A stretch of DNA of 64,000 nucleotides, from positions 1 to 64,000 of the IMG/VR virus record IMGVR_UViG_3300044786_000023. One strand, written 5' to 3'. Positions 28,662-46,441 of this stretch are shown here, in pieces. The translations under genes were made by a program, and so were the position numbers. The notes under the pieces were generated by a model. The model saw only the letters and a list, made by a program, of their open reading frames with translations, had not been told where the DNA came from and made no database searches. Source of the stretch: a virus. Numbering within the stretch: position 1 is the first letter of the stretch; every line of letters begins with the position of its first letter.

Positions 28662-28683
28662 ACTCTCTAAAGCAGAGGACTAG

Positions 28684-29448
28684 ATGAGAGACTATACTGT
28701 TAATTCACTGACAATTCTACACTATGGCCGTGATTATCTTTCGGCGGCTTTACAAGCTGTCTATCCCTTAGTTGATAGGCAGCTAATTTTTTACGTTCCG
28801 CATCCCTCGCACGGACATAGAACCGACATTCCCCCTATTGAATCAAGAGATGAATTACTCGATAGCATCCCTGCTTATATGTGGGATAAGGTGCAATGGA
28901 TTGACACGGATTTTTGGAATGAGGGACAACAAAGGGATTATGCTTTGTCGGTTGCTTCACAGTCTTGTGACCTAGTGCTTACAATTGACTATGATGAGAT
29001 ACACCATGCCCATGTGTTAGATAAGATGCTTAATCACGTTTGGCAGATGAATGGGGCAAGGCGTTGGCTTGTGAATATGCTCCATTTTTGGCGTAGCTTT
29101 TCATTTGCTTGCTCTGATAATAACTGGCCCGTCCGCATTATAGATACACGTCATGACGGTGGCACGGGTTATGTCCCAAAAGAACTAGGTGATATTGCGC
29201 ATATGGGGTATGCTATTACCGATAAGGTTTGCAGATACAAAATTTCTATCCACGGCCATAAGGATGAATTGCGTCCTAACTGGTACGAGGAAAAGTGGCA
29301 AGCGTGGCCTCCCCCTGATGACTGTCACCCGACGAATGGTAAGAATGACGAGGGAGTCGGCTGGTGGAATCCGCAGCCGTTTGACAAGAGAGAGTTACCT
29401 TATGTTATGCATAGTCATCAATATTGGGATTTAGAAAGGATTGAATAA
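28684..29448 (+). CDS. putative glycosyltransferase (GT-A/GT2-like)
   Basis: Carries LTILHYGRDYLSAAL... and the DxD-like LTIDYDE. Confidence 0.45.
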   Translation: MRDYTVNSLTILHYGRDYLSAALQAVYPLVDRQLIFYVPHPSHGHRTDIPPIESRDELLDSIPAYMWDKVQWIDTDFWNEGQQRDYALSVASQSCDLVLTIDYDEIHHAHVLDKMLNHVWQMNGARRWLVNMLHFWRSFSFACSDNNWPVRIIDTRHDGGTGYVPKELGDIAHMGYAITDKVCRYKISIHGHKDELRPNWYEEKWQAWPPPDDCHPTNGKNDEGVGWWNPQPFDKRELPYVMHSHQYWDLERIE

Positions 29449-29609
29449 TGACTGTACTATTGCCCTTACTTTTTGTTCTAATCGGTGGGTTAGCTTATCT
29501 GCTAGCGGCTAATCCAAAATACCAGCAGCTTGGCCTGGTTACTTTCGGCTGTGGTTTATTGGTTTTCCTGCTAACTGGCGGGCAGCAGGTAGTGAGCTTA
29601 TTTCAATGA
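29448..29609 (+). CDS. 53-aa two-TM membrane protein
   Basis: Not in the track. TAATG and ATGA overlaps lie at its two ends. Confidence 0.4.
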   Translation: MTVLLPLLFVLIGGLAYLLAANPKYQQLGLVTFGCGLLVFLLTGGQQVVSLFQ

Positions 29610-29827
29610 AGTTTGAACACAAAACAGTAAATTTGAAGGAAAGACAAGAAAAACATAGGTCATTGGACTTTGAGTATTTCTTAAATCAAGAGGGCGATAA
29701 GGAATGGGAGCTTGTCTCAGTTGATAACGGCATAGCCTACTTCAAGCGGCCCTTGCGCACCAAGTCGGAAGCCGAGATACTGGCGCATTTTGATTATCCG
29801 CGACTGGATAGAAGTTCAGAAGTATGA
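29606..29827 (+). CDS. hypothetical protein
   Basis: Track ORF. Confidence 0.5.
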   Translation: MKFEHKTVNLKERQEKHRSLDFEYFLNQEGDKEWELVSVDNGIAYFKRPLRTKSEAEILAHFDYPRLDRSSEV

Positions 29828-30660
29828 ACATAACGTTTGTCCGCACTCGCCACGTTTATGATAGCTATATTGATTTTATCCGCTTGGCCGAATTGTCTGA
29901 TTTCCCTCTTATCTACTCTGATGAAGTGGATACTAGCAAAGAAGGTGTTTACATATTCATAACCATGAATGGTGACGTGGAATCGCATCTTAAGAACGAG
30001 GTAAGCTCCGGCAAGGCGCGTTACGCTCACTTGATTCTTTGGAATCTAGAACGACCAAGCGGTTCGGCTGGCAGTGTAGGCAACTATGCCAAGCGTCATA
30101 GACAGCTTATGTATGATAGGATATTTGACGAGTGCTGGTGTTCGGATAGGCGCCTGGCCGAAGAGACTCAAATACGCTTTGTGGTACTTGGCAGTGATGA
30201 AGGACTCGGCAGTCCCGGTGATGAAAAGTTCTATGACTTTTGCCATATGTCCTATCTGATTCCACGTCGCTCCAATGTCTACAGCAAGTTCAATCCTGAA
30301 CGCATCGGCCCTAACTGCTGGCCGCCCGAACGTGATGAGGTGCTGAGGCAGTCCAGATTCGCGCTTAACATTCATCAGGATATACACCCGTTCCAGGAGC
30401 CGTTGCGCCTGGCCCTATTCGCTGCTTATGGCTTGCCCGTTATCAGCGAAACTATCTTTGACTCCTATCCATGGGATTCTGATGTGGCTATATTTAGTGG
30501 GTATGACAGCATTGTGTCCAAGCTTAGGCAGGTGCTAGATGAACCATACGAAGCTTATAAAGAGATGGGCTTAAGGGCAAGGGAGAGGATGACAAAGGAT
30601 TTTCAATTTGGCAAAGTTGTAAGGGAAGCTGTGGCGCAATCCGTGGATGGCTGGCGATGA
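29824..30660 (+). CDS. GT1-like (CgeB-type C-terminal domain) glycosyltransferase
   Basis: LRLALFAAYGLPVISE...KLRQVLDEPYEAYKEMGLRARERM parallels the C-terminus of 41904..43658. Confidence 0.5.
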   Translation: MNITFVRTRHVYDSYIDFIRLAELSDFPLIYSDEVDTSKEGVYIFITMNGDVESHLKNEVSSGKARYAHLILWNLERPSGSAGSVGNYAKRHRQLMYDRIFDECWCSDRRLAEETQIRFVVLGSDEGLGSPGDEKFYDFCHMSYLIPRRSNVYSKFNPERIGPNCWPPERDEVLRQSRFALNIHQDIHPFQEPLRLALFAAYGLPVISETIFDSYPWDSDVAIFSGYDSIVSKLRQVLDEPYEAYKEMGLRARERMTKDFQFGKVVREAVAQSVDGWR

Positions 30661-31193
30661 TTAGACGTAATCGCAATACTCCATTTGTAGCCTATGATTT
30701 ATTTGGTGGCTACATCTCCCTTGTTTTCGATGCTATGGATTGGATAGTAAGTTTCTGGATTGGCAAGCCTCCATATATTGTTGGAGGAATTAGAAAATCA
30801 TCTGAGTGTTTTGGCATATTCAACCTTTGGATTGGTGATAGACTAATTTTTGATAGTCAAGATAGGGGATATGGAAATATATCAAAAAGACAACCCACTA
30901 CACCGATTGAATATGTTGGCTGGATATATGGTAATGTCGAAGATGAATGGATACTAAGGGAACTTGGTGTTACAGGTAAAATGATTTGGAAGGCATCTGA
31001 TAACAGTAATCGCGTTCAGCCCACGGCTGATGAGAAATCTGGCATTTTTGAGTATTGTACCATCACAATGGAAGTAGCCAAGAGGTTACGCAATAACTAT
31101 TCTGCTTTTCCCCCGCAAACCTTCACTGGTATAGATAAGGATGGTAATCAAACTATCCATCAGCCACTTTGGAAAGGTATCTATGAAGATTAG
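30657..31193 (+). CDS. hypothetical protein
   Basis: Track ORF. Confidence 0.5.
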   Translation: MIRRNRNTPFVAYDLFGGYISLVFDAMDWIVSFWIGKPPYIVGGIRKSSECFGIFNLWIGDRLIFDSQDRGYGNISKRQPTTPIEYVGWIYGNVEDEWILRELGVTGKMIWKASDNSNRVQPTADEKSGIFEYCTITMEVAKRLRNNYSAFPPQTFTGIDKDGNQTIHQPLWKGIYED

Positions 31194-31543: not shown

Positions 31544-31637
31544 TTTTATTATACTTGATGTTGTTATTGTAATTGTTTTCTTCGTTGGCGCACTTCTTTT
31601 TAAGAAGTATGTGATAGGTTCACTAGAAGATAAATGA
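31530..31637 (+). CDS. 35-aa single-TM peptide
   Basis: Not in the track. ATGA overlap with 31634. Confidence 0.3.
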   Translation: MTQFDFIILDVVIVIVFFVGALLFKKYVIGSLEDK

Positions 31638-32365
31638 AGATTAGCGGTTTCACCTTTGCCCACAATGCGCTAGAAGGTGGTTATCCCGTAGTCGAATCCA
31701 TATCGGCTGTGCGTCCTTACGTTGACGAAATCATAGCCGTTGACATCGAATCTACCGATGGCACATTCAGAGTGCTTGACCTGCTATGTGACAGAGTACT
31801 TACCTCAACTTGGGATGGTAGAGATACCACGCCACGCGCATTTATGAAGCATACTGAATGCAAAGGCGACATAATCATCTTCTTTGAGGCCGATGAGGTA
31901 TATGACGATTCTTTGCTCAGCGAAGTGCTATGGGCAATCGAGCGCGGGTATCATCACATCGGCGTATGGAGGTTACAGATTGAACAGAATTTCCAACGAT
32001 GTAGAATGTATCCGATACCAGTACATCGTATCTTTCCTAAAGGGGAAGGTTCCTATCATATCCATCCAACAAATCTACCTGATAGACCCATCCATGTCCT
32101 GTCACCTGATGCCGGATATTTATGGGACTGCAGCAACTGTTTTAGAGACTCATGGTTCCAACGCAAGCAGAATCAATCCGAAATATGGGGAGAACCTAGA
32201 AGCTTGATGGTAGCTCAACATTTTGCGGAGCCTAATGAGATAAGTAGAATCGAGGAGGAGAATAGGTTAAATGAACCTCATTGGATGTGGACATCGAGTC
32301 CATTCCATTTGCCTGAGATTCTTTTGCCTCTAGTGGGCAAGACACGCTATGAAGTGAGTATATGA
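31634..32365 (+). CDS. family-2 glycosyltransferase
   Basis: Carries ISGFTFAHNALEGGYPVVESI...IIAVDIESTDGT...FFEADEV. Paralog of 36583..37503. Confidence 0.7.
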   Translation: MKISGFTFAHNALEGGYPVVESISAVRPYVDEIIAVDIESTDGTFRVLDLLCDRVLTSTWDGRDTTPRAFMKHTECKGDIIIFFEADEVYDDSLLSEVLWAIERGYHHIGVWRLQIEQNFQRCRMYPIPVHRIFPKGEGSYHIHPTNLPDRPIHVLSPDAGYLWDCSNCFRDSWFQRKQNQSEIWGEPRSLMVAQHFAEPNEISRIEEENRLNEPHWMWTSSPFHLPEILLPLVGKTRYEVSI

Positions 32366-32856
32366 ACACCTTTACCAGACGTTCATTTCTTAAAGGTGTT
32401 TTATCTCTTGCGGCTTCATTTGCTATTCCAGTTGAATTAGTTGAACAAGCAGCTAAACTAATCGAGACTATTCCCAATGAACCGATAACTCGTAAGAATC
32501 CGGCTGGCTATATCCGTATCAATGAATTGCTTGTACCTGTAGCAAGCTTGAATATTGATACGGTATATCCTGAACCTCGTTTTATGTTTGATGGTTGGAG
32601 TGGCAAGAGTTTTAGAATTGATAAGCGACATGACGAATCACATACCGATATACAGTTCACAACTTATCAAAAGTTGCCAAGATACCTACTTGAGTCATCT
32701 ATAAAGTTTGCCGTTACCAATGAATATCTACCCTTTGAAGTAGCTGGAACTGGCTTATTTACATCCTATTCATATGATAGTATCATGATTAGTGATGAGA
32801 ACTGGAATTATACCTATGATCTTAGTGTTAATTCATTGGACAGGGTAATAAGATGA
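32362..32856 (+). CDS. hypothetical protein with twin-arginine (Tat) signal
   Basis: The N-terminus is MNTFTRRSFLKGVLSLAASFAIP. Confidence 0.55.
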   Translation: MNTFTRRSFLKGVLSLAASFAIPVELVEQAAKLIETIPNEPITRKNPAGYIRINELLVPVASLNIDTVYPEPRFMFDGWSGKSFRIDKRHDESHTDIQFTTYQKLPRYLLESSIKFAVTNEYLPFEVAGTGLFTSYSYDSIMISDENWNYTYDLSVNSLDRVIR

Positions 32857-33188
32857 AATGGGGCGCTTACTATCGCCAGTCACCCAAAACCGTTCAATAT
32901 CGAATCGGCAAACGGCGTGCTGCTTCAGTTGGCTACTTCACACCTGAACAGTGGCAAATGCTGTGCGCTTTCTTTGACGGTAAATGTGCGAGATGTGGGA
33001 AGAAGGGGTACTTGTCACCGGATCATATCATGCCGGCCAGTCGAGGGGGCACGACTTGGATAGATAACATTCAGCCGCTTTGCCCTGGTTGCAATGTGCG
33101 CAAAAGTAACATTTATACTAACGACTATCGGCCTGAGAATGTGAAGGAGTGGGCAAGGCAGGAAATGGAGAGGATGGATCTTGAATGA
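32853..33188 (+). CDS. HNH endonuclease
   Basis: Carries CARCGKKGYLSPDHIMPASRGG...NIQPLCPGCNVRK. Confidence 0.8.
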   Translation: MKWGAYYRQSPKTVQYRIGKRRAASVGYFTPEQWQMLCAFFDGKCARCGKKGYLSPDHIMPASRGGTTWIDNIQPLCPGCNVRKSNIYTNDYRPENVKEWARQEMERMDLE

Positions 33189-33490
33189 CTACTACAAAAC
33201 AAACTACGCTAAAGTGTAATCACTGTAAAAAGGAAGCATCCTTTGTGGGAGAACGTCCAGAGTTACCCGGCCTATATCGCATTGAAGGGGTATCGCCACC
33301 TGAGTCACCAAGAAACTGGTACAGAATTGATCCAAGCTACATAAACAGTATTTGGATGTCAAGCGATTTTGTAATCGGTGGTGACTTCTGTTCACCTGAA
33401 TGTATGCGAGATTACATCATAGAGAAGATTGATGAGTATGATAATCCTAAGCCTATTATGTATGGTGGCTTGTTTTCTGAGGTTAAATGA
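33185..33490 (+). CDS. hypothetical protein
   Basis: Track ORF with Cys pairs. Confidence 0.5.
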   Translation: MTTTKQTTLKCNHCKKEASFVGERPELPGLYRIEGVSPPESPRNWYRIDPSYINSIWMSSDFVIGGDFCSPECMRDYIIEKIDEYDNPKPIMYGGLFSEVK

Positions 33491-34239
33491 GTATCTTTGT
33501 GGACTTCGCAACTTTTGCTTACGCCGGCGACGCGCACCGACTTCATGCGCCGGGTCAGCTAAAACTGCAAGTTGAATCTAATGGCTATCCATTTAATAGG
33601 GTTATTGTCATCCATCAACTATGTAATCCACTCGATTATGGGAGGTATCTACTATTTGAGGATTGCAGTTTTTGGATAGACAATTTTGTCATAGATGACC
33701 TAGATAAAGTACTGAGAACATTCAACGTTGATATAGATAAGCCTCAATACGTTAGCTCTACTGATAAGACGCACACCTGGAAGAATCACACTGCTAACCA
33801 CTTGGCGGCGGTTATGCGCTCTAGTGCTGATTACATCGTATTTGCCGATAACGACTGTTGGATGATTAAGCAGCCTGATAGTTGGGTAAACAAGGGAGTT
33901 GAAATTCTATCGGCTAACCCTGATGTGTTTATCGTTAGTCCTAATGATGGTGAGCCAGAGCGAAGGACACAGGTAATCTCTCAACAGATGTTTATGGCTA
34001 GAACGAATGAATTTAGAGAGGCAGACTTTAACCAGCCGGGATATAGTGGTAATCCGAGAGACTATCCAGAGATGCCCGAATATCACGCGATGGGAGAGGG
34101 CAGGATTCACTATCATTGTGTAGCAAGCGGCAAGTATCGCTATGTGTTACCCTCTGAGTATCGTTACTTTCATCACAATAGACTAAATGAAGATGGTACA
34201 TACAAGACGAACTATAGTGACTACGGGATAATAGTCTAA
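33487..34239 (+). CDS. hypothetical protein, possible GT-A fold
   Basis: Carries the DxD-like IVFADNDCW. Otherwise unrecognised. Confidence 0.4.
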   Translation: MSIFVDFATFAYAGDAHRLHAPGQLKLQVESNGYPFNRVIVIHQLCNPLDYGRYLLFEDCSFWIDNFVIDDLDKVLRTFNVDIDKPQYVSSTDKTHTWKNHTANHLAAVMRSSADYIVFADNDCWMIKQPDSWVNKGVEILSANPDVFIVSPNDGEPERRTQVISQQMFMARTNEFREADFNQPGYSGNPRDYPEMPEYHAMGEGRIHYHCVASGKYRYVLPSEYRYFHHNRLNEDGTYKTNYSDYGIIV

Positions 34240-34636: not shown

Positions 34637-34943
34637 TAGTGGCGTTCTATCACAAGAGACTTATGATAAGATTGAACAATTTTTGAAGGTACACCCTAGT
34701 GCTGAATGGGGACCGGCTCATATTGTTTTGAGTGATGATAACATACTAGACGCTCATATCAAGTGGTGTTTAGGATTGGCTAAGGCTGCACTGTCCAAGA
34801 ATCCCAATGACTTGTTTGATTTGCCAGGCGATATTGATATGATGAATCGACATGATTGGTACTCAGAGGATAATCCAAGTAGCCTACAGGCCACAGTCGC
34901 ATTTTTAGAGGAATTACTACAAATACCAGAGGATGTAAGATGA
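34599..34943 (+). CDS. hypothetical protein
   Basis: Track ORF. Confidence 0.45.
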   Translation: MEIGGAMCQNCVNSGVLSQETYDKIEQFLKVHPSAEWGPAHIVLSDDNILDAHIKWCLGLAKAALSKNPNDLFDLPGDIDMMNRHDWYSEDNPSSLQATVAFLEELLQIPEDVR

Positions 34944-35803
34944 GAGTACTTATCACGGGTGGTAGCTCACTTTTAGGCAAGACGTTATCGGAATCGCGTC
35001 CCGATAACATCATTCTAGATTCCACCTGGTACACAAACCATGTGCCTAGCTTAACTATGCACCACATGGACGTGTGCAATAAGTCACAGGTAACTTATGT
35101 TTTTGAACGCGCTAAGCCAGATGTTGTTATTCATTGCGCAGCGGTTGGTAGCGTGGACTATACCGAAGGACACTTCACTGAGACGCGCAATGTCAATGTG
35201 CTAGGTACTGAGAATGTGCTAAAAGCTGCGCAGGACTCAAAAGCATTATTCGTCTACATCTCGACTAATGCGGTATTCGATGGCAGTGCGCCGCCATATG
35301 ATGAGACGCATCACAGGCAGCCGGTAAACAGATATGGCAGTATCAAGCGTGAAGCTGAGAACATTGTTATGGCTTCACGTAACTGGCTTATTATTCGGCC
35401 CTTTATGCTTTACGGCTATCCGTATCCAGGGGGGCGCGGTAATTGGTTCACGGCTATTCTCTCTCTCTTAAGCGGAGGTGAGACAGCCAAGCTAGTTGAT
35501 GATACCTACTGGCAACCGTCACTGGCTTTAGACGTGGCACAAGCTATCTGGCGACTGATTGAGCTAGGTAAGCGAGATGAGATATACCATGTAGCTGGTG
35601 ATGAAAGATTAACGCTATTCTGGTTCGGTATGATGATTGCTAGATTATGGGGGTATAGTCCTGACTTGATTGTCCCTATTTCTAGTAGCAGCTTGAAGGG
35701 CATAGCACCACGGCCAAGAGATACCACGTTTAAGTTGGACAAGATACACGAATTAGGGATCAAGTTAAGAAATGTTGAGGAAGGGTTAAAGGTATTAAAG
35801 TGA
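34940..35803 (+). CDS. NAD(P)-dependent sugar epimerase/reductase, RmlD-like
   Basis: Carries MRVLITGGSSLLG (Rossmann) and YGSIKREAE (YxxxK). Confidence 0.75.
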   Translation: MRVLITGGSSLLGKTLSESRPDNIILDSTWYTNHVPSLTMHHMDVCNKSQVTYVFERAKPDVVIHCAAVGSVDYTEGHFTETRNVNVLGTENVLKAAQDSKALFVYISTNAVFDGSAPPYDETHHRQPVNRYGSIKREAENIVMASRNWLIIRPFMLYGYPYPGGRGNWFTAILSLLSGGETAKLVDDTYWQPSLALDVAQAIWRLIELGKRDEIYHVAGDERLTLFWFGMMIARLWGYSPDLIVPISSSSLKGIAPRPRDTTFKLDKIHELGIKLRNVEEGLKVLK

Positions 35804-36270
35804 TAGATGAAGTAATTCCCTTAGTCAAGATAATTCAACATATCAGCAAGGTATCATCACTGCTAAAAAGAGTAGCCAGAACGTTAGAATCAAGAGCCGA
35901 TACTCACGACGTAACCAAATTTGAGCCTGATGAGTTTAGCGGCTTCTGTCAATTAGATTCATATCGGCTTCACGGTAAAGAGGAATACGGCTCTAAAGCT
36001 TACGAAGCTGGTATGAATATCGATGCTGTTAAGCTACATCTATCTCGTAACTCTCACCATATCGAATATTGGCCTAATGGTTTAGCCGGCATGTCTTTTG
36101 CTGATGTTATCGAGATGTTAGCTGATTGGGAGGTAGCAAGACAACAACGAGATACCGAGCAAGATATTAACAAGACTTGGTTAACTAGACAAGAAAGATT
36201 TAAGCTAAGTGATTTTGAGATAACTTTTCTCAGGACAATATGGGAAAAGATTGAAAAGGACTTAAAATGA
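35800..36270 (+). CDS. hypothetical protein (His-rich motifs HDVTK ... SHHIEYW)
   Basis: Track ORF. Confidence 0.5.
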   Translation: MIDEVIPLVKIIQHISKVSSLLKRVARTLESRADTHDVTKFEPDEFSGFCQLDSYRLHGKEEYGSKAYEAGMNIDAVKLHLSRNSHHIEYWPNGLAGMSFADVIEMLADWEVARQQRDTEQDINKTWLTRQERFKLSDFEITFLRTIWEKIEKDLK

Positions 36271-36317: not shown

Positions 36318-36590
36318 ATGCAAGGTAAAATTTCAGAACTCAATACTTTTGCTAATATGGTTATCCCGAAAGAACTTGATGACCGCGCCAGACTATGGGC
36401 AGCTAAACTTAAAACGACTAGATCAAAGCTAACAGCTATAGCTTTATGTGAATATATTGACAAATTGGACAAGGGAGATAATCAGGTTATAACAAGAACA
36501 CAGCAAAGGTTGAGAGAATCCAGGCAAAGAATGAGTGATGCTGCTAAGTCAAGAGAAGCTAAAAAAAGAGGGATAGAATCAAGTGAGTGA
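36318..36590 (+). CDS. hypothetical protein, possibly ribbon-helix-helix
   Basis: Carries RARLWAAKLKTTRSKLTAIALCEYIDKL. Confidence 0.4.
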   Translation: MQGKISELNTFANMVIPKELDDRARLWAAKLKTTRSKLTAIALCEYIDKLDKGDNQVITRTQQRLRESRQRMSDAAKSREAKKRGIESSE

Positions 36591-38030: not shown

Positions 38031-38224
38031 TGAACCAAGATATAAAAGTAATTATTATTGCTAATATAGTAGCCAGGGCAGATGAACCTAATAAGCTATG
38101 GATGTATAATTATCTCTCTAAAAATATTGATGACATTGTAGAGAGTGTCAACCAGCACAACCCATTAAAGCACGGCTTTAGGGGTTTAGAAGTCCAAGAT
38201 GAAATGAGGCGACTCGGTGAATAA
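38030..38224 (+). CDS. hypothetical protein
   Basis: Track ORF. Confidence 0.45.
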   Translation: MNQDIKVIIIANIVARADEPNKLWMYNYLSKNIDDIVESVNQHNPLKHGFRGLEVQDEMRRLGE

Positions 38225-38921
38225 TTTTACCCTATCCGACATTCACAAGTTAACCACCGAATCCCTCCTTGAAATCCCAACCGGCAATCCCTGGCTAGAT
38301 GCTAGATACGATGAACAGGTTGGTATTATTGGTCATACGAATCCGTATTATCGCTTATTCTACCGCATAGCGCAGCAGCTTAAACCTGAGTTTGTGGTAG
38401 AGTTGGGTTCGTGGCGCGGCGATGCATCGGCTCATTTTGCGCTTGGCAATCCTGAATGCGCCGTGATTGCCGTGGACATCCATAAGGATAATGACATAGC
38501 GGGTATGGCAAAGTTGCAAGAAGCAGTGAATTTACTGCCTAATATGACATGGGTACAAGCATGGTCATGGGATGCGGTAGAGACGGTTAAGGCAGTGGAC
38601 AAGCCGATTTCGATTCTCTTCATTGACGCCTGGCACGACTATAAATACGCCAAACTAGAATGGGACTTATACTCACCTTTACTTGCCAGTCCCTCACTTG
38701 TTATCTGTGATGACATAACGGCGGGGTACAACTTTGAGGGTATGCTAAACTTTTGGAATGAGTTACCGGGTGAGAAATTCCTGGATAACTTCATTCATGT
38801 TGGCGTGCCCATGGGTTTTGTAAAATATGTGGCAAAAGATAGAACACCTGATTCAACAGAGTCAACGCAGGATACGCAACCTGCCCCTAGAAAGCGTGGC
38901 CGTAAACCCCGAACGGCGTAA
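38217..38921 (+). CDS. class I SAM-dependent methyltransferase (CmcI/TylF-like), paralog A
   Basis: Carries NPYYRLFYRI...VVELGSWRGDAS...ILFIDAWHDY...LVICDDI...FWNELPGEKF. The C-terminal tail is basic (PRKRGRKPR). Confidence 0.7.
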   Translation: MNNFTLSDIHKLTTESLLEIPTGNPWLDARYDEQVGIIGHTNPYYRLFYRIAQQLKPEFVVELGSWRGDASAHFALGNPECAVIAVDIHKDNDIAGMAKLQEAVNLLPNMTWVQAWSWDAVETVKAVDKPISILFIDAWHDYKYAKLEWDLYSPLLASPSLVICDDITAGYNFEGMLNFWNELPGEKFLDNFIHVGVPMGFVKYVAKDRTPDSTESTQDTQPAPRKRGRKPRTA

Positions 38922-39408
38922 CTACTACCGCTTTCTGTACCGGCTAGTTAAGATGTTCAAATCTAAGCTATGCCTTGAAATTGGCATACAAACCGGCATG
39001 GCCTCTGCTTATATGTGTGCGGCTGGCAGTCAAGTTATCGGCATAGATATACTTGTACCGGGGATGGTAATGCCTGATAGTTTTCACTTCATTCATGGGG
39101 ATTCAACTGACATGCTTACCTACGCTAAAGTAATGGAGCTGGTATCACGGTATGGCAAACTCGGCTTAGTTTTCCAGGACTCAAGTCACCACTATCTACC
39201 TAGTAAAAAGGAATGGGAATTGTATTCAGCATTATTAGCACCTAACGCTATTTGGATATGTGATGACATAACGGTGGCATTTTACAATACCGAGACTGAC
39301 CCGTTGGGTAAAGGTATGGTTCAATACTTCGATGAATTACCAGGGGAGAAGCGGCTATATCAGGATGTGCTGCATCGTGGTAACTGTCAAGGAATCGTGT
39401 TGACTTGA
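38827..39408 (+). CDS. class I SAM-dependent methyltransferase, paralog B (start probably GTG ~38895)
   Basis: Carries NYYRFLYRLV...LEIGIQTGMAS...LVFQDSSHHY...IWICDDI...YFDELPGEKR. Confidence 0.7.
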   Translation: MWQKIEHLIQQSQRRIRNLPLESVAVNPERRNYYRFLYRLVKMFKSKLCLEIGIQTGMASAYMCAAGSQVIGIDILVPGMVMPDSFHFIHGDSTDMLTYAKVMELVSRYGKLGLVFQDSSHHYLPSKKEWELYSALLAPNAIWICDDITVAFYNTETDPLGKGMVQYFDELPGEKRLYQDVLHRGNCQGIVLT

Positions 39409-39950
39409 ATCTAAAGCGTCTAGTCAATAAAGCTATTAAATCTCCTCCCCTCCCTTCCCTATCCTGGCTATATGGTGACTACTACTCACCTTATTACACG
39501 CTGATGTATCTACTAGCTGGTACGATTCAAAATGGCTTGCTAGTTGAGCTTGGCGTTGAACAAGGTAGAGGCTTAGTTTCTATGGCGGTGGCAAGTAACA
39601 CTAATCGGGTTATCGGTTTTGATTCTCATTTGCATCCTGAGTTAAGCAGGAATCTGAAAGTGTATTCTAATGTATTATTTTTTAACTTACCTTCATTGCC
39701 TGTACCTCGTATAATCACAAGTAAGCCGATAAGTCTTTTGCACATTGACACTGAACATAGCTACTCTATGGCTAAGGCTGAATTTGAGGCATATCAACCT
39801 TACCTGGCTAAAGGTGCTTATGTCCTATTTGATGATCTACATGCTATTGAGGATGAGGTGCTGACTTACTTTAACGAGTTACCTTATGAGAAAATACAGG
39901 ATGATAGGCTGCATCCTAGTTGCGGGTATGGGGTGATGATTTATGAGTAG
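39405..39950 (+). CDS. class I SAM-dependent methyltransferase, paralog C
   Basis: Carries SPYYTLMYLL...LVELGVEQGRG...LLHIDTEHSY...YVLFDDL...YFNELPYEKI. Confidence 0.7.
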   Translation: MNLKRLVNKAIKSPPLPSLSWLYGDYYSPYYTLMYLLAGTIQNGLLVELGVEQGRGLVSMAVASNTNRVIGFDSHLHPELSRNLKVYSNVLFFNLPSLPVPRIITSKPISLLHIDTEHSYSMAKAEFEAYQPYLAKGAYVLFDDLHAIEDEVLTYFNELPYEKIQDDRLHPSCGYGVMIYE

Positions 39951-40188
39951 TGAAGAATGGCAAAAAGCAATAAACAATATAACTGACGGATGGACAACGA
40001 GTCCATTTGGCTCTTTTGCTGAGACAGTAAGCGAGTTAAAGCTAGAGCCAGAGCCGCCAACCTGGAAAGATAGAATCAGTAAAATTCCTTACTTAATAGC
40101 TTATTACACTAGCTATCCATTCATCTGGCTTATCTGTGAATTGTGGCATGGCGTAAAAGATGCATGGGAATCGGTATTCGATGAGTAG
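39943..40188 (+). CDS. hypothetical protein
   Basis: Track ORF. Confidence 0.45.
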   Translation: MSSEEWQKAINNITDGWTTSPFGSFAETVSELKLEPEPPTWKDRISKIPYLIAYYTSYPFIWLICELWHGVKDAWESVFDE

Positions 40189-40765
40189 CCCCTGGCTCCC
40201 CTATCTCATGACTGACTACATAAAACAGCTTAAACCGCAACGAGTATTTGAGTGGGGTAGTGGGGAGAGTACCTTATTCTTTATCGAGCTAGACACTAAG
40301 TGTTTAGCTTCTATTGAACATAACAAAGAGTGGTTTGACAAGATAAATCAGGGACTCATTGATAAGAATGTTCTCCACGCTGGTTATAACTACGTACCTT
40401 ATGAGGATAGTACAATTGGCTCTAATCCTGCTAATCCCGTTCACTACAAATCAGCATCTACTGAATTGGGTGAGGTAAACTTTAAGCAATATGCCTCAAT
40501 TATAGATAGGTATGGTGATAGGAAATTTGACCTCATCCTCATTGACGGCATGGCTCGTGCTTCCTGTTTGTACCACGCTGCCAGTCACGTCGCTGAAGGT
40601 GGCTGTATAGTGCTGGATAACGCCGAACGTGACTACTATATGCAAAATGTCTCATTCTTATTTGAGGGATGGGAACGGATACTATTTGAGGGATACGGGC
40701 CGATACTGGATTACCAATGGAAAACGCTGGTACTGATAAATAAACGGAAACGACATTATGAATGA
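40160..40765 (+). CDS. SAM methyltransferase-fold protein resembling the DUF579/glucuronoxylan O-methyltransferase type
   Basis: Carries VFEWGSGESTLFF...ASIEHNKEW...YNYVPY...DLILIDGMARASC...VLDNAERD. The likely start is MSSPWLP at 40181. Confidence 0.55.
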   Translation: MHGNRYSMSSPWLPYLMTDYIKQLKPQRVFEWGSGESTLFFIELDTKCLASIEHNKEWFDKINQGLIDKNVLHAGYNYVPYEDSTIGSNPANPVHYKSASTELGEVNFKQYASIIDRYGDRKFDLILIDGMARASCLYHAASHVAEGGCIVLDNAERDYYMQNVSFLFEGWERILFEGYGPILDYQWKTLVLINKRKRHYE

Positions 40766-40964
40766 TAAAGGTTACACTTTAACGACATCTATCGAGTTAT
40801 GGAAACGACTAATGGATAGAACTGGCAATCCATACAGCAAGTGCTATGGTGTACCTCAGCAGTGCTTCTTTTGCGATGCTGGCTATCCAGCGCATAGCCC
40901 CGGTTGCATATGGCCTATTGCAGTAGAACTTGTCAGATTGGATGAAAAAGGCGAACTGAGTTAA
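40758..40964 (+). CDS. hypothetical protein
   Basis: Track ORF. Confidence 0.45.
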   Translation: MNDKGYTLTTSIELWKRLMDRTGNPYSKCYGVPQQCFFCDAGYPAHSPGCIWPIAVELVRLDEKGELS

Positions 40965-41651
40965 GTGAGTACCTGTTTATCTCACCTATGGATTGAACGC
41001 GGCCCAATGATCTCCGGTTCCGATGAACCAGGAATAGAATTGAGCCAGCAATTAGAACAGTTGTGGCTGGAATCGACAAGAGGAAATATTATGAATAAGT
41101 CTATCTTACACGCCTTAGCCCAACAAGCCTTAACCGATTCTATCTACCCCTCTCCCCTATTCCCGCCGTCGCCTTATTATCGCTTTCTTAAACGGCTGTC
41201 CGAACATCTACAGCCACGCGTATCCGTTGTACTTGGAGTCTGCGGTGGCGGCTGTTGCTTACATCTGGCACTAGGGAATCCACAAGGCAGAGTCGTTGGT
41301 GTTGACTTTGCTTACGATCACGACGAACAGATAAAGCATATCTATAAGGCGTGTCCAAACTTTATATTTTGGCATGGCGATTCGGTTTTCGATGTAGGCC
41401 AAATAGTAAGTGACTTTGGTCAGCCTCAAATTGTGTTTGTGGACACGACACATACTTATCATCAAACTATGACAGAGTTTAATACGTGGCGCGATTATCT
41501 GGCCGATAACTGGATTATGTGCTTTGATGACCTATTCCGGCCTGGAATGGAACAGGCGTGGAATGAGTTACCAGAGCCAAAGGTGCGCTTAGATGCATTG
41601 CATACAGGCGCAGAAGAGGGCGGCGGATTCGGGGTAGTGTGGCAGGGATAG
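40965..41651 (+). CDS. class I SAM-dependent methyltransferase, paralog D
   Basis: Carries SPYYRFLKRL...VVLGVCGGGC...IVFVDTTHTY...IMCFDDL...AWNELPEPKV. GTG start, with internal ATGs possible. Confidence 0.65.
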   Translation: MSTCLSHLWIERGPMISGSDEPGIELSQQLEQLWLESTRGNIMNKSILHALAQQALTDSIYPSPLFPPSPYYRFLKRLSEHLQPRVSVVLGVCGGGCCLHLALGNPQGRVVGVDFAYDHDEQIKHIYKACPNFIFWHGDSVFDVGQIVSDFGQPQIVFVDTTHTYHQTMTEFNTWRDYLADNWIMCFDDLFRPGMEQAWNELPEPKVRLDALHTGAEEGGGFGVVWQG

Positions 41652-41903: not shown

Positions 41904-43658
41904 ATGGATATATCAATAGTAACCGGTACTTACAACCGACTCCATTCCCTGCAACGCATGGTTAACTCTGCTAGACGTTCGTTTATCGGTTTGCACGGCC
42001 TCGCTTATCAAGCGGTGATAGTTGATGGTGGTTCACAAGACGGTACTCAGGAATGGTGTTTATCTCAACCTGACATCCTACTCATCGAACACGGCAAACT
42101 GCTAGGCGCTGTCAAGGCATTTAACGATGGTGCGCTTGCTGCAACTGGCAATTATGTTATTATGGGCAATGATGATATTGAGTATGTCGGCGATTCTGTT
42201 TTAACCGCTTATGTCTATATGCAAAGTAACTCAGATTGCGGCATTGGGTGCTTTTACCAAAATCGCAATGGTCGGGACTGGCATGTTGAGGAAATGCCGT
42301 GCATAGATAATGAGCAACAAGTATCACGGCCATATGGTCAGGTGTGCATTGTCCCAAAGTGGCTTGGTGATTATGTCGGCTGGTGGGGGGATTACCTTCA
42401 TACCTATGGTGGGGATAATGAGTTATCATCCAGGGTGTATGAGTTGGGATTCAAAGTATCGCCCGTACCTATGGCAAGAATCGCAGATCATGAAGTTGAT
42501 GACGATCTGCGTAAGATTAACAATATCACGGGTGGTAAAGACCCTCGCGCCGTTAAAGGTCATCACCCCGACTCATGGGCCTGGGGTAGACGCTGGAAAC
42601 ACATGGATATGTCACCTCAGTATGTTGGCCCTATCATTCGTCACTTCCCCATAATGGAGAATCCTACACCTAAAAAACACCGGGTAGTTTATCTGCCTAT
42701 CTATGAGCAGGGATATCCCGTTCAAAAAGAACAGAAGCGCGGTTTACGCGAGGCACTAGCTAAAGTTGCTGTAGTAGCTGAGTATGATTATGTTACGCGC
42801 CATGCCGAAGTAGGTAAAGATAAAGTGATTTTTGAGCTAAGGGCGCTTATCGAGAGGTTACAGCCGACTATCCTTTTAACTCAATTGCATAATGGCGCAC
42901 AAATAAATGATGTGGATATTCAAGGGATTGCTAATAACTGGCCTGGCACGAAACGGGTAAACTGGAATGGTGACTTCTGGCCGGATAACTTGCTATCCGA
43001 AGAAGGTATCAAACTGGCGAAAGCCTTTGATTTACAGCTAACGGTGAATCGGAGTGCGTTAGATGACTACAAAAAAATGGGTGTTAATGCTGAGTATTGG
43101 CAAATTGGCTATGAGCCTGATGGTATTTGTGATGAGAGTAACAATTCTTTTGACGTGGTCTTTCTTGCGTCTGGCTATAGCAAAGCGAGACAAGAACTTG
43201 TTAGAAAGTTACGTAGTCTCAATCTCAACTTTGGTCTCTATGGCAATGGCTGGCCTAAAGAGTGGAGTAGCGGACAAAGCATGTATGATTTCAAAACAGC
43301 TTGCCAGTCATACCGAGGTGCAAAAATAAGCATCGGTGACTCGCAATGGCCTGATACCGGCTTTGTGTCTAATCGCGTCTTTCAGGCGTTAGCTGCTGGC
43401 AGCGCGGCACTGGCACATCAGTACTTTCGCGATATGGACAAGTTAGGCTTGGTCGATGGCGAGACGTGTATTATCTGGCGTGACTTTGCGGAGTTGGAAA
43501 AGAAAATTAGGTATTACCTTTCACACGAAAAGGAGCGTAAAGCTATAGCCGATGCCGGTGAGAAGTTGGCACTTACGCGCCATTCGTTTGATGTGCGAGT
43601 ACAGGAATTACTAGGGATGTTGGATGGTGAGAAAGATGAGGGTGGTTGGCGATGGTAG
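41904..43658 (+). CDS. two-domain glycosyltransferase (N-terminal GT2, C-terminal GT1/CgeB-like)
   Basis: The N-terminus carries ISIVTGTYNR...VIVDGGSQDGT...MGNDDIEY. The C-terminus carries SNRVFQALAAGSAAL...ETCIIWRDFAELEKKIRYYLSHEKERKAIA. Confidence 0.7.
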   Translation: MDISIVTGTYNRLHSLQRMVNSARRSFIGLHGLAYQAVIVDGGSQDGTQEWCLSQPDILLIEHGKLLGAVKAFNDGALAATGNYVIMGNDDIEYVGDSVLTAYVYMQSNSDCGIGCFYQNRNGRDWHVEEMPCIDNEQQVSRPYGQVCIVPKWLGDYVGWWGDYLHTYGGDNELSSRVYELGFKVSPVPMARIADHEVDDDLRKINNITGGKDPRAVKGHHPDSWAWGRRWKHMDMSPQYVGPIIRHFPIMENPTPKKHRVVYLPIYEQGYPVQKEQKRGLREALAKVAVVAEYDYVTRHAEVGKDKVIFELRALIERLQPTILLTQLHNGAQINDVDIQGIANNWPGTKRVNWNGDFWPDNLLSEEGIKLAKAFDLQLTVNRSALDDYKKMGVNAEYWQIGYEPDGICDESNNSFDVVFLASGYSKARQELVRKLRSLNLNFGLYGNGWPKEWSSGQSMYDFKTACQSYRGAKISIGDSQWPDTGFVSNRVFQALAAGSAALAHQYFRDMDKLGLVDGETCIIWRDFAELEKKIRYYLSHEKERKAIADAGEKLALTRHSFDVRVQELLGMLDGEKDEGGWRW

Positions 43659-44043: not shown

Positions 44044-44226
44044 TTGGCGGTGGTAATCGCTTTATGTATATCTCTATTCATTGCTATTGGATACCTTCAT
44101 CTTTTTACAGATGACTTGGATATTATTCAGGATAAATTCAAGATAGAGATTTATAGAGCCGGGATTGCCCTAGTAATAATACGTGGTACATTATTTCTGA
44201 TTAGGGATTTATTACAATTATGGTAA
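44044..44226 (+). CDS. small membrane protein
   Basis: Track ORF with a non-ATG start. Confidence 0.35.
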   Translation: MAVVIALCISLFIAIGYLHLFTDDLDIIQDKFKIEIYRAGIALVIIRGTLFLIRDLLQLW

Positions 44227-44657
44227 TTCCTAATGAGAGATACTACCGAATCCTGGAGTGCATCCCTATTGCTTGCGTAGACGTTGCCATTATTGCCAGA
44301 GGCAGTGTCCTTCTAGTCAAGCGCAATGACCTCCCCGCTAAAGACGAATGGTGGCTGCCAGGTGGCAGGGTTTACAAAGGTGAGTTAATGAAGCAAACGG
44401 CTAAACGCAAAGCACTAGAGGAAGTGGGAATCGAGTGCCACATCGGGCCGATTATTCACACGGCTGAAACAATATTCCCTGATGGGCCAAATGGGATTCC
44501 TGTTCACAGCATTAACTCGTGCTTTATGCTTTATCCAGTGGGTGACTTTATAGTTAAGCTAGACAGTCATCACGATTCGTATGAATGGGCTAACCATATC
44601 TATGAAGGACTACATCCTTACGTGGTTAAATGTTTGTTGGGTGCGGGTATAGAATAA
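44220..44657 (+). CDS. Nudix hydrolase
   Basis: The Nudix box is GGRVYKGELMKQTAKRKALEEVGI. Confidence 0.8.
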   Translation: MVIPNERYYRILECIPIACVDVAIIARGSVLLVKRNDLPAKDEWWLPGGRVYKGELMKQTAKRKALEEVGIECHIGPIIHTAETIFPDGPNGIPVHSINSCFMLYPVGDFIVKLDSHHDSYEWANHIYEGLHPYVVKCLLGAGIE

Positions 44658-44707: not shown

Positions 44708-44745
44708 AGCGGCGTTTCCCTTTGTAGGATTCGCCGCTTTTTTAT
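44708..44745 (+). terminator. intrinsic terminator
   Basis: AGCGGCG (44708-44714) pairs with CGCCGCT (44732-44738) and is followed by TTTTTTATTT. Confidence 0.5.
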
Positions 44746-44762
44746 TTATCAGAGGAATCAAT

Positions 44763-45170
44763 ATGAAAATAGGACTCGACTATGGTGGTGTTATCTCCTT
44801 TGCACTTGATGGATGGGCCAATACTCTCACTATAGCTAAAGGTAGGGGACATCAAATTTACCTTATCTCACATGCTCAAAAGGGCGAAGATTTACAATTG
44901 AGGCGCGACTATGCCAACTTGTTAGGTATAATAGATTTATCCTTCGCTGACTTACAGTCAGGTAGTCAAGAATCTGAGATAGCTAGACGTAAGGCCGAAC
45001 TGTGTCAAGAGCATGGAATCGAAATATTCATAGACGATGATCTACACAGAGTTGAAGCAGTCGGTAGAATGTGTAACAGATGTGCTGCTTTGTACATCCC
45101 TCAGAATCTGTGGCAGGTTGGACAAAGGCTAATAGAAGGACTGAATAGTGATCAAAACAACTATTCATAA
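44763..45170 (+). CDS. hypothetical protein (possibly HAD-like)
   Basis: Carries MKIGLDYGGV. The resemblance is weak. Confidence 0.45.
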   Translation: MKIGLDYGGVISFALDGWANTLTIAKGRGHQIYLISHAQKGEDLQLRRDYANLLGIIDLSFADLQSGSQESEIARRKAELCQEHGIEIFIDDDLHRVEAVGRMCNRCAALYIPQNLWQVGQRLIEGLNSDQNNYS

Positions 45171-45324
45171 TTGTGCTAGATGTGGACAGAACCATGAGGA
45201 TTTAGAGTTTTTACTATTTGAGAATCCAATAGAGGATACCGATGGCACAGTATGGAATTATTGGTCTGTATGTCCTACCAACAATGAGCCAATACTGCTA
45301 AAGGTAAAACAGATTGATGATTAG
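45148..45324 (+). CDS. 58-aa zinc-ribbon-like protein
   Basis: Not in the track. GTG start. Carries CARCGQ...CPTNNE. Confidence 0.3.
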   Translation: MIKTTIHNCARCGQNHEDLEFLLFENPIEDTDGTVWNYWSVCPTNNEPILLKVKQIDD

Positions 45325-46441
45325 CATCATAACCCCGGCCTACATAGATACTATTGAAAAACTTGAATGGCTTAACGAGATGTTAGCCTCTGTCCGCACT
45401 CAGACTCTAGCTGAATGGGAAGTCATCATTATGGATGACGCATCACCCATGCCGATAAACCTACATGACTACGATCCGCGAGTTCGCACCTTGCGAATGG
45501 TGAATCGTAGCGGCCCAGCCTTATGTCGAAATACGGCCGTAGCCTTAGCCAGATACCAGGCCATCCTGCCCATTGACGCCGATGACGTGCTGCCTTCACC
45601 TGATATTCTAAACAAGCTTTATCAAGCGTGGCTAGAGGATAAGACAAAGATAATTTATGGTGACTTGCAACGACTAGAGGTATTCGAGGGTGAGTGGAAG
45701 AGGGGCAGAGTACACGAACTACCTGAGTATAAATTCACCCGGCCCGACTTTGGTATCAATGGCACGGTTCTTGATCCGGCTGGCACAATACCTGTAAGCG
45801 GCTTGCACTCAATTGAAACTCATCACAAGGCGGGCGGCTGGAAAGCCGAATTAGATGCTGGCTTGGAGGATGTAGAATACTGGGTAGCAGCGGGTAAAGC
45901 TGGTTGTTGTGGTAAGCACATTAGTGAGATTGTTTTGCTTTATCGCAGGCACGATGAAAGCCGTAGCTCTCTTTTGAGACGAAATAAACAAGAAACGAAC
46001 ATGCGGAATCGAATCCGCCAAATGCACCAAGATGTATACGAAGGGAGATACCCCATGGGATGTTGCGGAGGTGGTGCGGCTTATGTGCCACCAGAAACTT
46101 ACAATCAAGCAAGCGTGTCAGCGCCACTTACTCTGGATAAATATCCGGCTAGTGAAAAGGTGTGGGTTGAATATACCGGACAGAGACAGGGGAGTTTTGG
46201 CGTGGTAGGCCAGTTCACTAATTATCCTTACACGGTAGACGGCCCTAGCCACAAGATAGAAGTTCATGTTAACGACTTGCCAAAGTTCCGGCATTCAGGA
46301 CGCGGCGTTGATTTCAGAATAGGTGTACCAGCGCCAAACGGCTATGCGCCTCCGGTGGTGACGGGGCCGCAACCGTTTGAGGCACAAGCGCCGGAACTGG
46401 CACAGATTCTACAGTTAGACGAGGTGGCACTTGCTGCTTGA
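45314..46441 (+). CDS. family-2 glycosyltransferase with an unrecognised C-terminal domain
   Basis: Carries ISIITPAY...VIIMDDASP...PIDADDV. Confidence 0.7.
   Translation: MMISIITPAYIDTIEKLEWLNEMLASVRTQTLAEWEVIIMDDASPMPINLHDYDPRVRTLRMVNRSGPALCRNTAVALARYQAILPIDADDVLPSPDILNKLYQAWLEDKTKIIYGDLQRLEVFEGEWKRGRVHELPEYKFTRPDFGINGTVLDPAGTIPVSGLHSIETHHKAGGWKAELDAGLEDVEYWVAAGKAGCCGKHISEIVLLYRRHDESRSSLLRRNKQETNMRNRIRQMHQDVYEGRYPMGCCGGGAAYVPPETYNQASVSAPLTLDKYPASEKVWVEYTGQRQGSFGVVGQFTNYPYTVDGPSHKIEVHVNDLPKFRHSGRGVDFRIGVPAPNGYAPPVVTGPQPFEAQAPELAQILQLDEVALAA

Follow-up and report, generated by a model that had tools for sequence, protein, structure and literature searches.

INTRODUCTION

To our knowledge, glycosylation of phage particles was first shown in 2023, and the prevailing view limits it to a few actinobacteriophages that devote one to four genes to the purpose. 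According to the accounts given in PMC12363180 and PMC12619734, Freeman et al. (2023, Cell Host Microbe) located glycans on the C-termini of the capsid and tail-tube proteins of Che8, Corndog, and Myrna. Here, we describe a much larger set of sugar-enzyme genes in an uncultured tailed phage. The DNA analysed is a 64,000-nucleotide stretch of IMG/VR virus record IMGVR_UViG_3300044786_000023 (positions 1 to 64,000, hereafter the window). It carries a block of co-oriented genes between the major capsid gene and further late genes (28684–46441, hereafter the island) and a smaller second module of three glycosyltransferase (GT) genes beside a tail gene (57937–61041). With high confidence, the island is a glycan-synthesis gene set, and we lean towards the view that it is a phage-encoded cytoplasmic system for glycosylating virion proteins.

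The cassettes of the mycobacteriophages are compact. Corndog gp35–38, which span 2.75 kb and immediately precede the capsid gene, comprise one methyltransferase (MT) and three GTs, and Che8 gp108–110 comprise three GTs. Like these cassettes, the genes described here encode soluble phage GTs together with MT activity beside virion genes, and no lipid-carrier or export genes accompany them. Furthermore, the MT encoded at 39405 is homologous to Corndog gp35 (E = 3.8e-9) and to the C-terminus of Che8 gp108 (E = 2.2e-5). Unlike the mycobacteriophage cassettes (three GTs with or without one MT, in less than 3 kb), the genes described here occupy ~21 kb, about seven times as much, and include their own nucleotide-sugar tailoring enzymes and an extra mucin-like acceptor module. 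Their lineage is uncultured and unrelated to the actinobacteriophages. A first-pass annotation of the window, made by reading the letters, had already judged the scale to lie far above that of the mycobacteriophages, as these figures bear out.

Autonomous glycosylation of capsid or fibrils is known in giant viruses, including chlorovirus PBCV-1 with its A064R protein and mimivirus with its fibril clusters. The likeness lies in cytoplasmic viral GTs, rhamnose methylation, 6-deoxyhexose enzymes, and clusters that vary between relatives. Giant viruses are eukaryotic viruses with genomes of 330 kb to more than 1 Mb, whereas the present phage is a 71-kb siphophage, and the two are compared by description, except for the structural neighbours of the 28684 product in BFVD. 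In bacteria, the a-type flagellin glycosylation island of Pseudomonas aeruginosa has 14 genes and makes a rhamnose-linked glycan. Such flagellin islands share with the present one a multi-gene make-up, a place beside the gene for a polymerising subunit, cytoplasmic O-glycosylation, and variable content; they are bacterial, whereas this one is viral, and the two are likened by description alone. Unlike the serotype-converting or O-antigen modules of phages (Gtr, Wzx/Wzy), the present genes come with no transmembrane GT, no integrase, and no prophage relatives.

RESULTS

Gene content of the island

The window is 100% identical to part of a 71,300-bp circularly permuted contig (run SRR35361832), which we take as the complete genome, and parts of its sequence also occur in two Joint Genome Institute (JGI) metagenomes and two further runs; the source samples include JGI 3300044467 and 3300044499. 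Within the island there are 37 tightly packed open reading frames (ORFs) of at least 50 amino acids, all on the + strand, close to the first-pass count of about 40, and no credible gene lies on the − strand. The enzymes are seven GT proteins with eight GT domains, four firm and one probable CmcI-type MTs, an RmlD-family reductase, and a Nudix hydrolase. Genes assigned to glycan synthesis cover 63% of the island bases, and the remainder holds the genes for an HNH endonuclease, a DUF5662 protein, and a membrane protein with DUF1360, together with small and largely non-conserved ORFs. The island genes, with a separate RmlC-like gene upstream, are as follows (values are E-values; SAM, S-adenosylmethionine; dTDP, deoxythymidine diphosphate; NDP, nucleoside diphosphate).

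21597..22067, + strand: RmlC-like dTDP-sugar epimerase/isomerase, between the large terminase gene and a putative portal gene (Pfam dTDP_sugar_isom, 1.2e-15)
28684..29448, + strand: GT-A fold glycosyltransferase by predicted structure, first island gene, lineage-specific and present in all relatives
29824..30660, + strand: CgeB-type, GT-B-like glycosyltransferase (Pfam Glyco_trans_1_2, 1.8e-8, above cut-off)
31634..32365, + strand: GT2 glycosyltransferase (Pfam Glycos_transf_2, 1e-7), distant paralogue of 36583 (22.5% identity)
32853..33188, + strand: HNH endonuclease (Pfam HNH, 7.8e-12)
33487..34239, + strand: probable GT-A glycosyltransferase, weak (GT2, 3e-4, below cut-off)
34940..35803, + strand: RmlD-family NDP-4-keto-6-deoxyhexose reductase (Pfam RmlD_sub_bind, 3.1e-49)
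35800..36270, + strand: DUF5662 protein (Pfam, 6.7e-23)
36583..37503, + strand: GT2 glycosyltransferase (Pfam, 1.1e-7), in five of five full islands
37644..38030, + strand: DUF1360 small membrane protein with a hydrophobic segment (Pfam, 8e-9; phrog_781), in four of five full islands
38217..41651, + strand: five class-I SAM methyltransferase genes in a block, interspersed with small ORFs (Pfam/profile), made up of the next two entries
38217–38921, 38827–39408, 39405–39950, and 40965–41651, + strand: methyltransferases (Methyltransf_24/RMNT_CmcI, above gathering score)
40160–40765, + strand: probable methyltransferase (Pfam, 6.6e-3; family profile matches the MT-like structure 3cvo, 1.2e-6)
41904..43658, + strand: two-domain glycosyltransferase of 584 amino acids (N-terminal GT2, 2.7e-15; C-terminal Glyco_trans_1_2, 2.9e-21)
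44220..44657, + strand: Nudix hydrolase (Pfam NUDIX, 4.5e-14)
45314..46441, + strand: GT2 glycosyltransferase, last island gene (Pfam, 4e-18), in five of five full islands

Pfam profile searches upheld nearly every enzyme that the first-pass annotation had proposed. In particular, they recovered the GT2 genes at 31634, 36583, and 45314, the GT1/CgeB-like gene at 29824, both domains of the GT2-GT1 enzyme at 41904, and the RmlD-like, Nudix, and separate RmlC-like genes. Four of its five SAM MTs score above the Pfam cut-off, and the fifth (40160) is weak in Pfam and has the profile match to 3cvo. Of its two weak GT-A candidates, 28684 gained a GT-A fold model, whereas 33487 stays weak. It had missed the HNH (32853), DUF5662 (35800), and DUF1360 (37644) genes, the GT2 trio at 57937–61041, and the Ser/Pro-repeat tail protein at 61799.

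The first island gene, 28684, has no Pfam match. Its AlphaFold (AF2) model, built from an alignment of 38 lineage homologues, has a predicted local distance difference test score (pLDDT) of 93.4 and a predicted template-modelling score (pTM) of 0.90, and it is clearly predicted to adopt a GT-A fold. Foldseek returned 136 PDB matches at E ≤ 1e-3, and the neighbours include SpsA (1.5e-6), AvpGT, the peptide S-glycosyltransferases SunS and ThuS, and the polypeptide N-acetylgalactosamine (GalNAc) transferase GalNAc-T. The best BFVD matches are Fringe-like and GT17-like (template-modelling score 0.66–0.68), and giant-virus GT-A proteins are among the neighbours. The protein has an invariant D102-x-D104-E105 motif, and its homologues number 191.

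The peptide-modifying SunS and ThuS also suit another reading, in which the target is a non-virion molecule of the infected cell, with the GTs either inactivating a host protein or glycosylating a small molecule. The GTs are soluble and cytoplasmic, as this reading would need, and an ADP-ribosyltransferase in the island of a relative (see below) shows that modifiers of host proteins can occupy the slot. We nevertheless give it little credence: host take-over genes are normally early, whereas the island belongs to the operon of late, structural genes; the searches revealed no core pathway that would make a small-molecule aglycone; and eight transferase domains with five MTs are excessive for inactivating a host protein.

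Five of the seven homologues of 33487 match GT2, and an F-x-D-x-D motif is invariant, but the 33487 profile has no match in the PDB and gives no clue to acceptor or donor. Likewise, the profile of the two-domain GT at 41904, whose homologues in relatives are 54–81% identical, gave no acceptor or donor clue against the PDB. The NCBIfam names of the GT2 proteins all lie far below their cut-offs and imply no sugar specificity. Among the relatives, 11 loci extend past the capsid gene on its downstream side, and nine of them contain a homologue of 29824. Four of the five MTs are old paralogues of one another (25–33% identity).

Both the RmlC-like protein and the 34940 protein pass their Pfam cut-offs, but the latter scores 158.6 bits against the NCBIfam rmlD model, below the equivalog cut-off of 224. 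The best 120 of its 613 homologues are metagenomic and 51–89% identical, several of them on long contigs that also carry capsid homologues, and one of these 120 has an organism name, a Planctomycetota genome bin. Homologues of the RmlC-like protein in relatives are 51–66% identical; since the homologue in locus L010 (L010:18573-19064) lies inside the island, the RmlC-like gene is functionally tied to the island. The genome has no gene for RmlA (NTP_transferase) or RmlB (4,6-dehydratase), so these two steps must come from the host. Taken together, the enzyme assignments support what the first pass had predicted, namely that the late operon makes a glycan with 6-deoxyhexose and O-methyl groups.

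None of the GTs has a transmembrane segment. Single hydrophobic windows occur in the Nudix protein and, marginally and at the SAM-binding domain, in the 40965 MT, and hydrophobic segments are present in the small ORFs at 29448, 37478, 37644, 41639, and 44044, in line with the small membrane proteins seen in the first pass. PHROGs added nothing for 10 unassigned island ORFs, and a 'Serglycin' match in Pfam was discarded as an artefact of added Gly-Ser linkers. The HNH gene lies elsewhere in locus L016, after the right-border gene (L016:11873-12205); because its position differs there, we read it as mobile, and it behaves as a homing-type passenger outside the glycan pathway.

Conservation and variation of the island

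In the relatives examined, with capsid identities down to 59%, the island is always in the same post-capsid slot. Specifically, homologues of 28684 follow the capsid gene in every related contig that has sequence downstream of that gene, and in most such contigs homologues of 29824, 31634, 33487, RmlD, and 36583 come next with their order kept. Because the same slot is occupied in every relative examined, the island is ancestral to the lineage and no recent insertion, and the possibility raised in the first pass, of an insertion between capsid and connector genes, is not supported.

The distance from the capsid gene to the right border (the homologue of 46784) is readable across the whole slot in five genomes, this window included. 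The full islands measure 10.7, 17.9, 18.2 (this window), 24.6, and 26.6 kb. All five keep a core of seven GT genes and at least one MT gene with unchanged gene order (capsid identity of these relatives, 59–64%), and RmlD and DUF1360 are each present in four. The minimal 10.7-kb island consists almost solely of the seven GTs, RmlD, two MTs, and DUF1360, whereas the larger islands add a sugar C-methyltransferase, a nucleotidyltransferase, an extra epimerase/dehydratase, and a B12-radical SAM enzyme.

These differences in size and content bring in a further explanation, namely that the post-capsid slot is a permissive hotspot for accessory genes and that its GT and MT genes serve several unrelated targets. 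The range from 10.7 to 26.6 kb favours it, as do the ADP-ribosyltransferase, B12-radical SAM, and phosphonate-binding/permease genes in the slot of relatives, the HNH endonuclease, and the many non-conserved small ORFs. Against it stand the conserved core, the near-pure glycan content of the minimal island, and the fact that most cargo of the larger islands is sugar tailoring too. The explanation is partly true, in that it covers the variable part, but it fails to explain the conserved core, and as an account of the whole island we find it improbable.

Two of the larger islands carry the following cargo. Locus L025 (L025:2304-9411, IMGVR_UViG_3300009499_000114) encodes a phosphonate-binding protein, two ABC permeases, a MobA-like nucleotidyltransferase, and a TylCIII-type sugar C-methyltransferase, which may serve a phosphonate-decorated glycan or may be unrelated cargo. 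The largest island, of 26.6 kb, in locus L026 (L026:6730-9269, IMGVR_UViG_3300009506_000084), encodes an ADPrib_exo_Tox protein (3.9e-35) and a B12-binding radical SAM enzyme.

Single GTs diverge faster than the capsid protein. Between the window and its closest relative, identity is 96% for the capsid protein, 68% for 28684, and 37% for 33487, as would be expected of a locus that builds an exposed surface glycan and is under diversifying selection.

A second module pairs GTs with a Ser/Pro-repeat tail protein

Polypeptide GalNAc-transferases of family GT27 start mucin-type O-glycosylation on tandem repeats of Ser, Thr, and Pro. In Gram-positive bacteria, serine-rich repeat adhesins such as GspB, Fap1, and SraP are glycosylated in the cytoplasm, beginning with GtfA/GtfB. 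A module of the present phage resembles both. Three GT2 genes sit between the Dit gene and a tail protein gene, with two small ORFs before the latter.

57937–58800, + strand: GT2 glycosyltransferase (Pfam, 2.4e-14)
58742–59449, + strand: GT2 glycosyltransferase with a beta4GalT-type domain (Pfam GT2, 7.4e-12; Glyco_transf_7C, 1.8e-6)
59431–61041, + strand: GT2 glycosyltransferase, polypeptide-GalNAc-transferase-like, with an extra C-terminal domain (Pfam, 1.7e-15)
61799..64000, + strand, running off the window: tail protein, 909 amino acids in full (L021:10496-13225), from its translation and precomputed Pfam matches

In the PDB, the family profile of 59431 best matches polypeptide GalNAc-transferases, namely GalNAc-T1 (1.8e-12) and also T2, T4, T7, T9, T10, and T12, over query residues 161–275. 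GT2 is the only Pfam match of the protein, and no ricin-type lectin domain is present. Its residues 310–535 (~225 residues) form a separate module that is also found alone in metagenomes, and the family counts 389 clusters at E ≤ 1e-30 among 1.84 billion representatives.

The tail protein is missing from the ORF list because its gene runs off the end of the window. It consists, in order, of a Laminin_G_3 domain, a 294-residue (S-P-S-x-S-V)n repeat (window 62471–63352), and a Sipho_Gp37 domain. The repeat region contains 148 Ser and 57 Pro in 306 residues, with little Thr. It is identical in three independent assemblies, its DNA uses all six Ser and all four Pro codons, and its longest exact repeat is 20 nucleotides; the Ser/Pro repeat is real. 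The tail protein gene also accounts for the rise in GC content to 0.53–0.56 at the end of the window.

We compared the tail protein across the 21 related loci that carry it. L031 alone has the Ser/Pro repeat, and it alone has the GT2 trio (86–88% identical). Where the Dit gene adjoins the tail protein gene with nothing between, as it does in 19 loci, neither repeat nor trio is present, and a Pro/Thr linker of ~15 residues joins the domains. The distal domains of the tail proteins of the window and L031 are unrelated.

The same pairing recurs outside the lineage. Homologues of 59431 occur in 25 viral contigs that share no other virion genes with this phage, and most of these contigs also carry a homologue of 57937. 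In 17 of the 25 (16 convincing), there are one to four Ser-rich-repeat ORFs on the same strand, with repeats of 89–1240 residues, most of them at most 600 nucleotides from one of these two GT genes; the negatives are mostly short or edge-truncated contigs. As a control, ~650 kb of loci without the 59431 enzyme gave one weak Ser-rich case, although these are mostly the phage's own relatives and kinship is uncorrected. The Ser-rich proteins share a common plan of a globular N-terminal domain, a huge Ser-rich stalk, and a short C-terminal peptide. They reach 1476 amino acids, the longest repeat has 1240 residues, and as many as four such proteins are encoded in a row (L054, L057, L060, L068, L070, and others). 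Some of the repeats read SASESASE or SASESASESASE, as in bacterial serine-rich repeat adhesins.

From these associations, we infer that the second module O-glycosylates the Ser-rich stalk of the tail protein. Like mucin-type GT27 systems, it combines a match to the GalNAc-T catalytic domain (59431), an adjacent Ser/Pro tandem repeat, and a beta4GalT-type enzyme (58742); unlike them, it lacks the ricin-type lectin domain, would act in the cytoplasm and not the Golgi, and has repeats in which the hydroxyl residues are nearly all Ser. With the serine-rich adhesins it shares very long Ser-rich repeats, adjoining soluble GTs, and a globular binding domain on a stalk that is glycosylated in the adhesins and would be so here. 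In contrast to those systems, no GtfA/GtfB-type GT4 pair and no SecA2/SecY2 accessory Sec genes are present in the module or the genome, and the putative acceptor belongs to the phage particle and never undergoes export. The second module shows a tie between GT genes and a protein of the particle in this phage.

Genome setting and the probable target of the glycan

The genome is packed in a phage-like manner, with an early region followed by one long late operon on the + strand.

Early region: D5-type primase-helicase, Dam methylase, DnaJ-domain protein, ERCC4 nuclease, and Prim-Pol
Late operon, + strand: from the large terminase gene (20052) to the tail genes

Sugar-enzyme genes make up about a quarter of this 71-kb tailed phage genome. 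In total, 10 GT proteins (11 domains), five MTs, RmlC/RmlD, and the Nudix enzyme are encoded in ~21 kb. The following classes of genes were sought in the 71.3-kb genome and none was found: integrase; flippase, polymerase, ligase, ABC exporter, priming phosphoglycosyltransferase, and Gtr-type membrane GT; and thymidylate-synthase-like base hydroxymethylase. When 185,579 species genomes were scanned with the capsid profile, no prophage relative turned up. The lack of integrase, export, priming, and hydroxymethylase genes and of prophages therefore weakens lysogenic conversion, synthesis of an envelope polysaccharide, and DNA glycosylation as explanations of the island.

Remodelling of the host envelope is the most familiar of these. 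In this explanation, the enzymes are auxiliary metabolic genes that alter the O-antigen, exopolysaccharide, S-layer, or wall glycan during infection, whether to block superinfection, to keep progeny from sticking to debris, or to bring about aggregation. Viral rml and GT genes from metagenomes are usually interpreted in this way (PMC9723712). The best NCBIfam matches of several GT2 proteins are exopolysaccharide or teichuronic-acid enzymes, albeit far below cut-off; the conserved DUF1360 membrane protein and other hydrophobic ORFs lie in the island; and rapid divergence of GT genes between close relatives would suit it as well. However, none of the priming, flipping, polymerising, ligating, exporting, or Gtr-type functions was found, all GTs are without membrane segments, and with neither integrase nor prophage relative there is no basis for lysogenic conversion. 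Moreover, the position of the island within the virion operon is fixed across the lineage, and the second module ties GTs to a phage protein rather than to the host. We consider envelope remodelling the main alternative, but an unlikely one.

DNA hypermodification, in which the transferases would decorate modified phage bases as in T4, is highly improbable. According to the account in PMC12619734, Pyle et al. (2024) describe phage GTs that build di- and trisaccharides on 5-hydroxymethylcytosine DNA. In the complete genome, by contrast, the sole base modifier is a Dam-type methyltransferase, with no hydroxymethylase or other base-modifying pathway, which upholds the case that the first-pass annotation had made against a DNA target. 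The genes also lie in the virion operon, outside the replication module. Furthermore, we know of no role in DNA glycosylation for CmcI-type MTs or for RmlC and RmlD, which weighs against this explanation.

We favour glycosylation of virion proteins because the enzymes are soluble, lysogeny and export genes are missing, and the second module comes with a mucin-like tail repeat. Several observations weigh against it. Profiles of four GT families found no match among the Che8 and Corndog GTs at E ≤ 1, and the capsid C-terminus is without the Gly-Ser/Asp-Ser end of the Che8 and Corndog proteins. The larger islands hold an unrelated ADP-ribosyltransferase and a phosphonate-binding protein with two permeases, and because of such cargo the contents of the slot do not all serve one product. 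The DUF1360 membrane protein of the core island and the other small hydrophobic ORFs could mean a membrane-linked step. The identity of the sugar is uncertain, since RmlA and RmlB are absent and RmlD falls below the equivalog cut-off. Finally, the Ser/Pro repeat was considered as acceptor of the main island and rejected: it cannot serve as such because it is missing in 19 of the 21 relatives, all of which keep the island.

A mechanism for virion glycosylation can be proposed on this footing. The host would supply dTDP-4-keto-6-deoxyglucose, which RmlC and RmlD would turn into dTDP-L-rhamnose or a related 6-deoxyhexose, and the Nudix enzyme might trim the nucleotide-sugar pools. The seven transferases of the island would add sugars stepwise, in the cytoplasm, onto a conserved virion protein, assembled or assembling; the foremost candidate for this acceptor is the capsid protein, whose C-terminal tail is conserved and predicted to be disordered. 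The four or five diverged CmcI-type MTs would O-methylate, and so cap, hydroxyls of the glycan. Separately, the GTs of the second module, read as two polypeptide-GalNAc-transferase-like GT2 enzymes and a beta4GalT-like one, would O-glycosylate the 294-residue Ser/Pro repeat to give a mucin-like stalk bearing a lectin-fold head. The likely outcome would be a coat of glycan that protects the particle and helps it to adhere, and relatives would differ in its structure.

More broadly, we put forward as a tentative proposal that environmental tailed phages outside the actinobacteriophages carry autonomous, multi-step, giant-virus-like protein glycosylation, in which a conserved 10–27 kb island coats the capsid with a methylated oligosaccharide containing 6-deoxyhexose and a separately mobile module, through its GalNAc-transferase-like enzymes, makes 'phage mucins' (mucin-like particle fibres) from Ser-rich repeat proteins. 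Compared with known virion glycosylation, what is new is the size, the GTs without detectable homology, the lineage-wide conservation, and the mobile mucin-type module. Full-text searches of the literature gave no account of this lineage or of phage glycan islands this large, nor any of a phage in which a Ser-rich repeat protein accompanies a GalNAc-transferase-like enzyme. If the proposal is true, a widespread uncultured lineage (at least 168 capsid clusters) would have possessed and conserved elaborate viral protein glycosylation from early on, and many environmental phages unrelated to it would use the second, mobile module to make glycosylated fibres resembling mucins. It would change the view of how phage surfaces deal with hosts, particles, grazers, and immune systems, offer a new supply of soluble enzymes that glycosylate proteins and whose peptide acceptors are defined, and caution against labelling viral rml and GT genes by default as 'auxiliary metabolic genes' for host O-antigen.

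Flanking genes and relationship to other phages

The island is bounded by virion genes on the left and, at some distance, on the right.

27146..28573, + strand: major capsid protein, HK97 fold (AlphaFold model and Foldseek)
28630..28662, + strand: GC-rich 12-bp hairpin without a T-run, read from the sequence, in the 110 nucleotides that separate the capsid gene from the first GT gene
46784..48058, + strand: Cys-rich conserved protein, right border of the island (51–77% identity in relatives)
51454–55335, + strand: tape measure protein (PhageMin_Tail, 1.2e-41)
55351–57936, + strand: Dit-like distal tail protein (weak SPP1_Dit and Sipho_tail matches)

The capsid sequence at 27146 has no match in Pfam, PHROGs, or isolate phages, and its identity comes from structure: the AlphaFold model gave 243 Foldseek matches in the PDB at E ≤ 1e-3, all of them capsids or encapsulins. 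At least 168 homologues are known, all metagenomic and at least 57% identical. The C-terminal tail (residues 449–475) is predicted to be disordered yet is conserved, as GGR[ST]x[ST]PxP[TV]LYG..C. On the right side, library searches yielded no head-tail function for the genes directly 3′ of the island (46431, 46784, and 48583). The 46784 product, presumed to be a virion protein, has no match in Pfam, PHROGs, or the PDB, and a BNR propeller is the only match of 49156 (49156–50664). Of the virion genes that the first-pass annotation had placed on both flanks, the capsid gene is thus confirmed on the left and the tape measure and Dit genes on the right, while the genes directly after the island go unnamed.

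Megablast against 50,697 deposited phage genomes gave no match, nor did tblastn of the capsid protein, 28684, 41904, and 59431 against the same set. The large terminase is ~23% identical to terminases of Streptomyces phages. Short contigs of the lineage have been binned as Nitrospiria, Hodarchaeales, and Planctomycetota (proteins P0064, P0230, P0237, and P0372); because these bin names conflict, the binning is unreliable as evidence of the host. The genome has no tRNA genes, an Rfam scan of it found no RNA family, and a promoter and terminator scan of the late operon gave site numbers not above those of shuffled sequences. The hairpin at 28630–28662 may set the ratio of capsid to enzyme expression, either as an attenuator or by acting on RNA stability.

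The only sizeable − strand ORF in the late operon (48059–48352, 97 amino acids) lies between 46784 and 48583. Directly 5′ of the capsid gene, 24723–27143 encodes an 806-amino-acid protein with no library match and 37–76% identity in relatives, which may be a fusion of protease and scaffold. Several particle-associated proteins are rich in Cys, namely those encoded at 27146–28573 (15 Cys), 46784–48058 (12), 49156–50664 (15), and 59431–61041 (15). Conservation in the capsid protein extends to at least 14 Cys, among them those of a C-x2-C...C-x4-C-x4-C cluster, which falls in the predicted E-loop, and of a C or C-x-D-C at the C-terminus. This unusual richness in Cys may reflect disulfide or metal cross-links.

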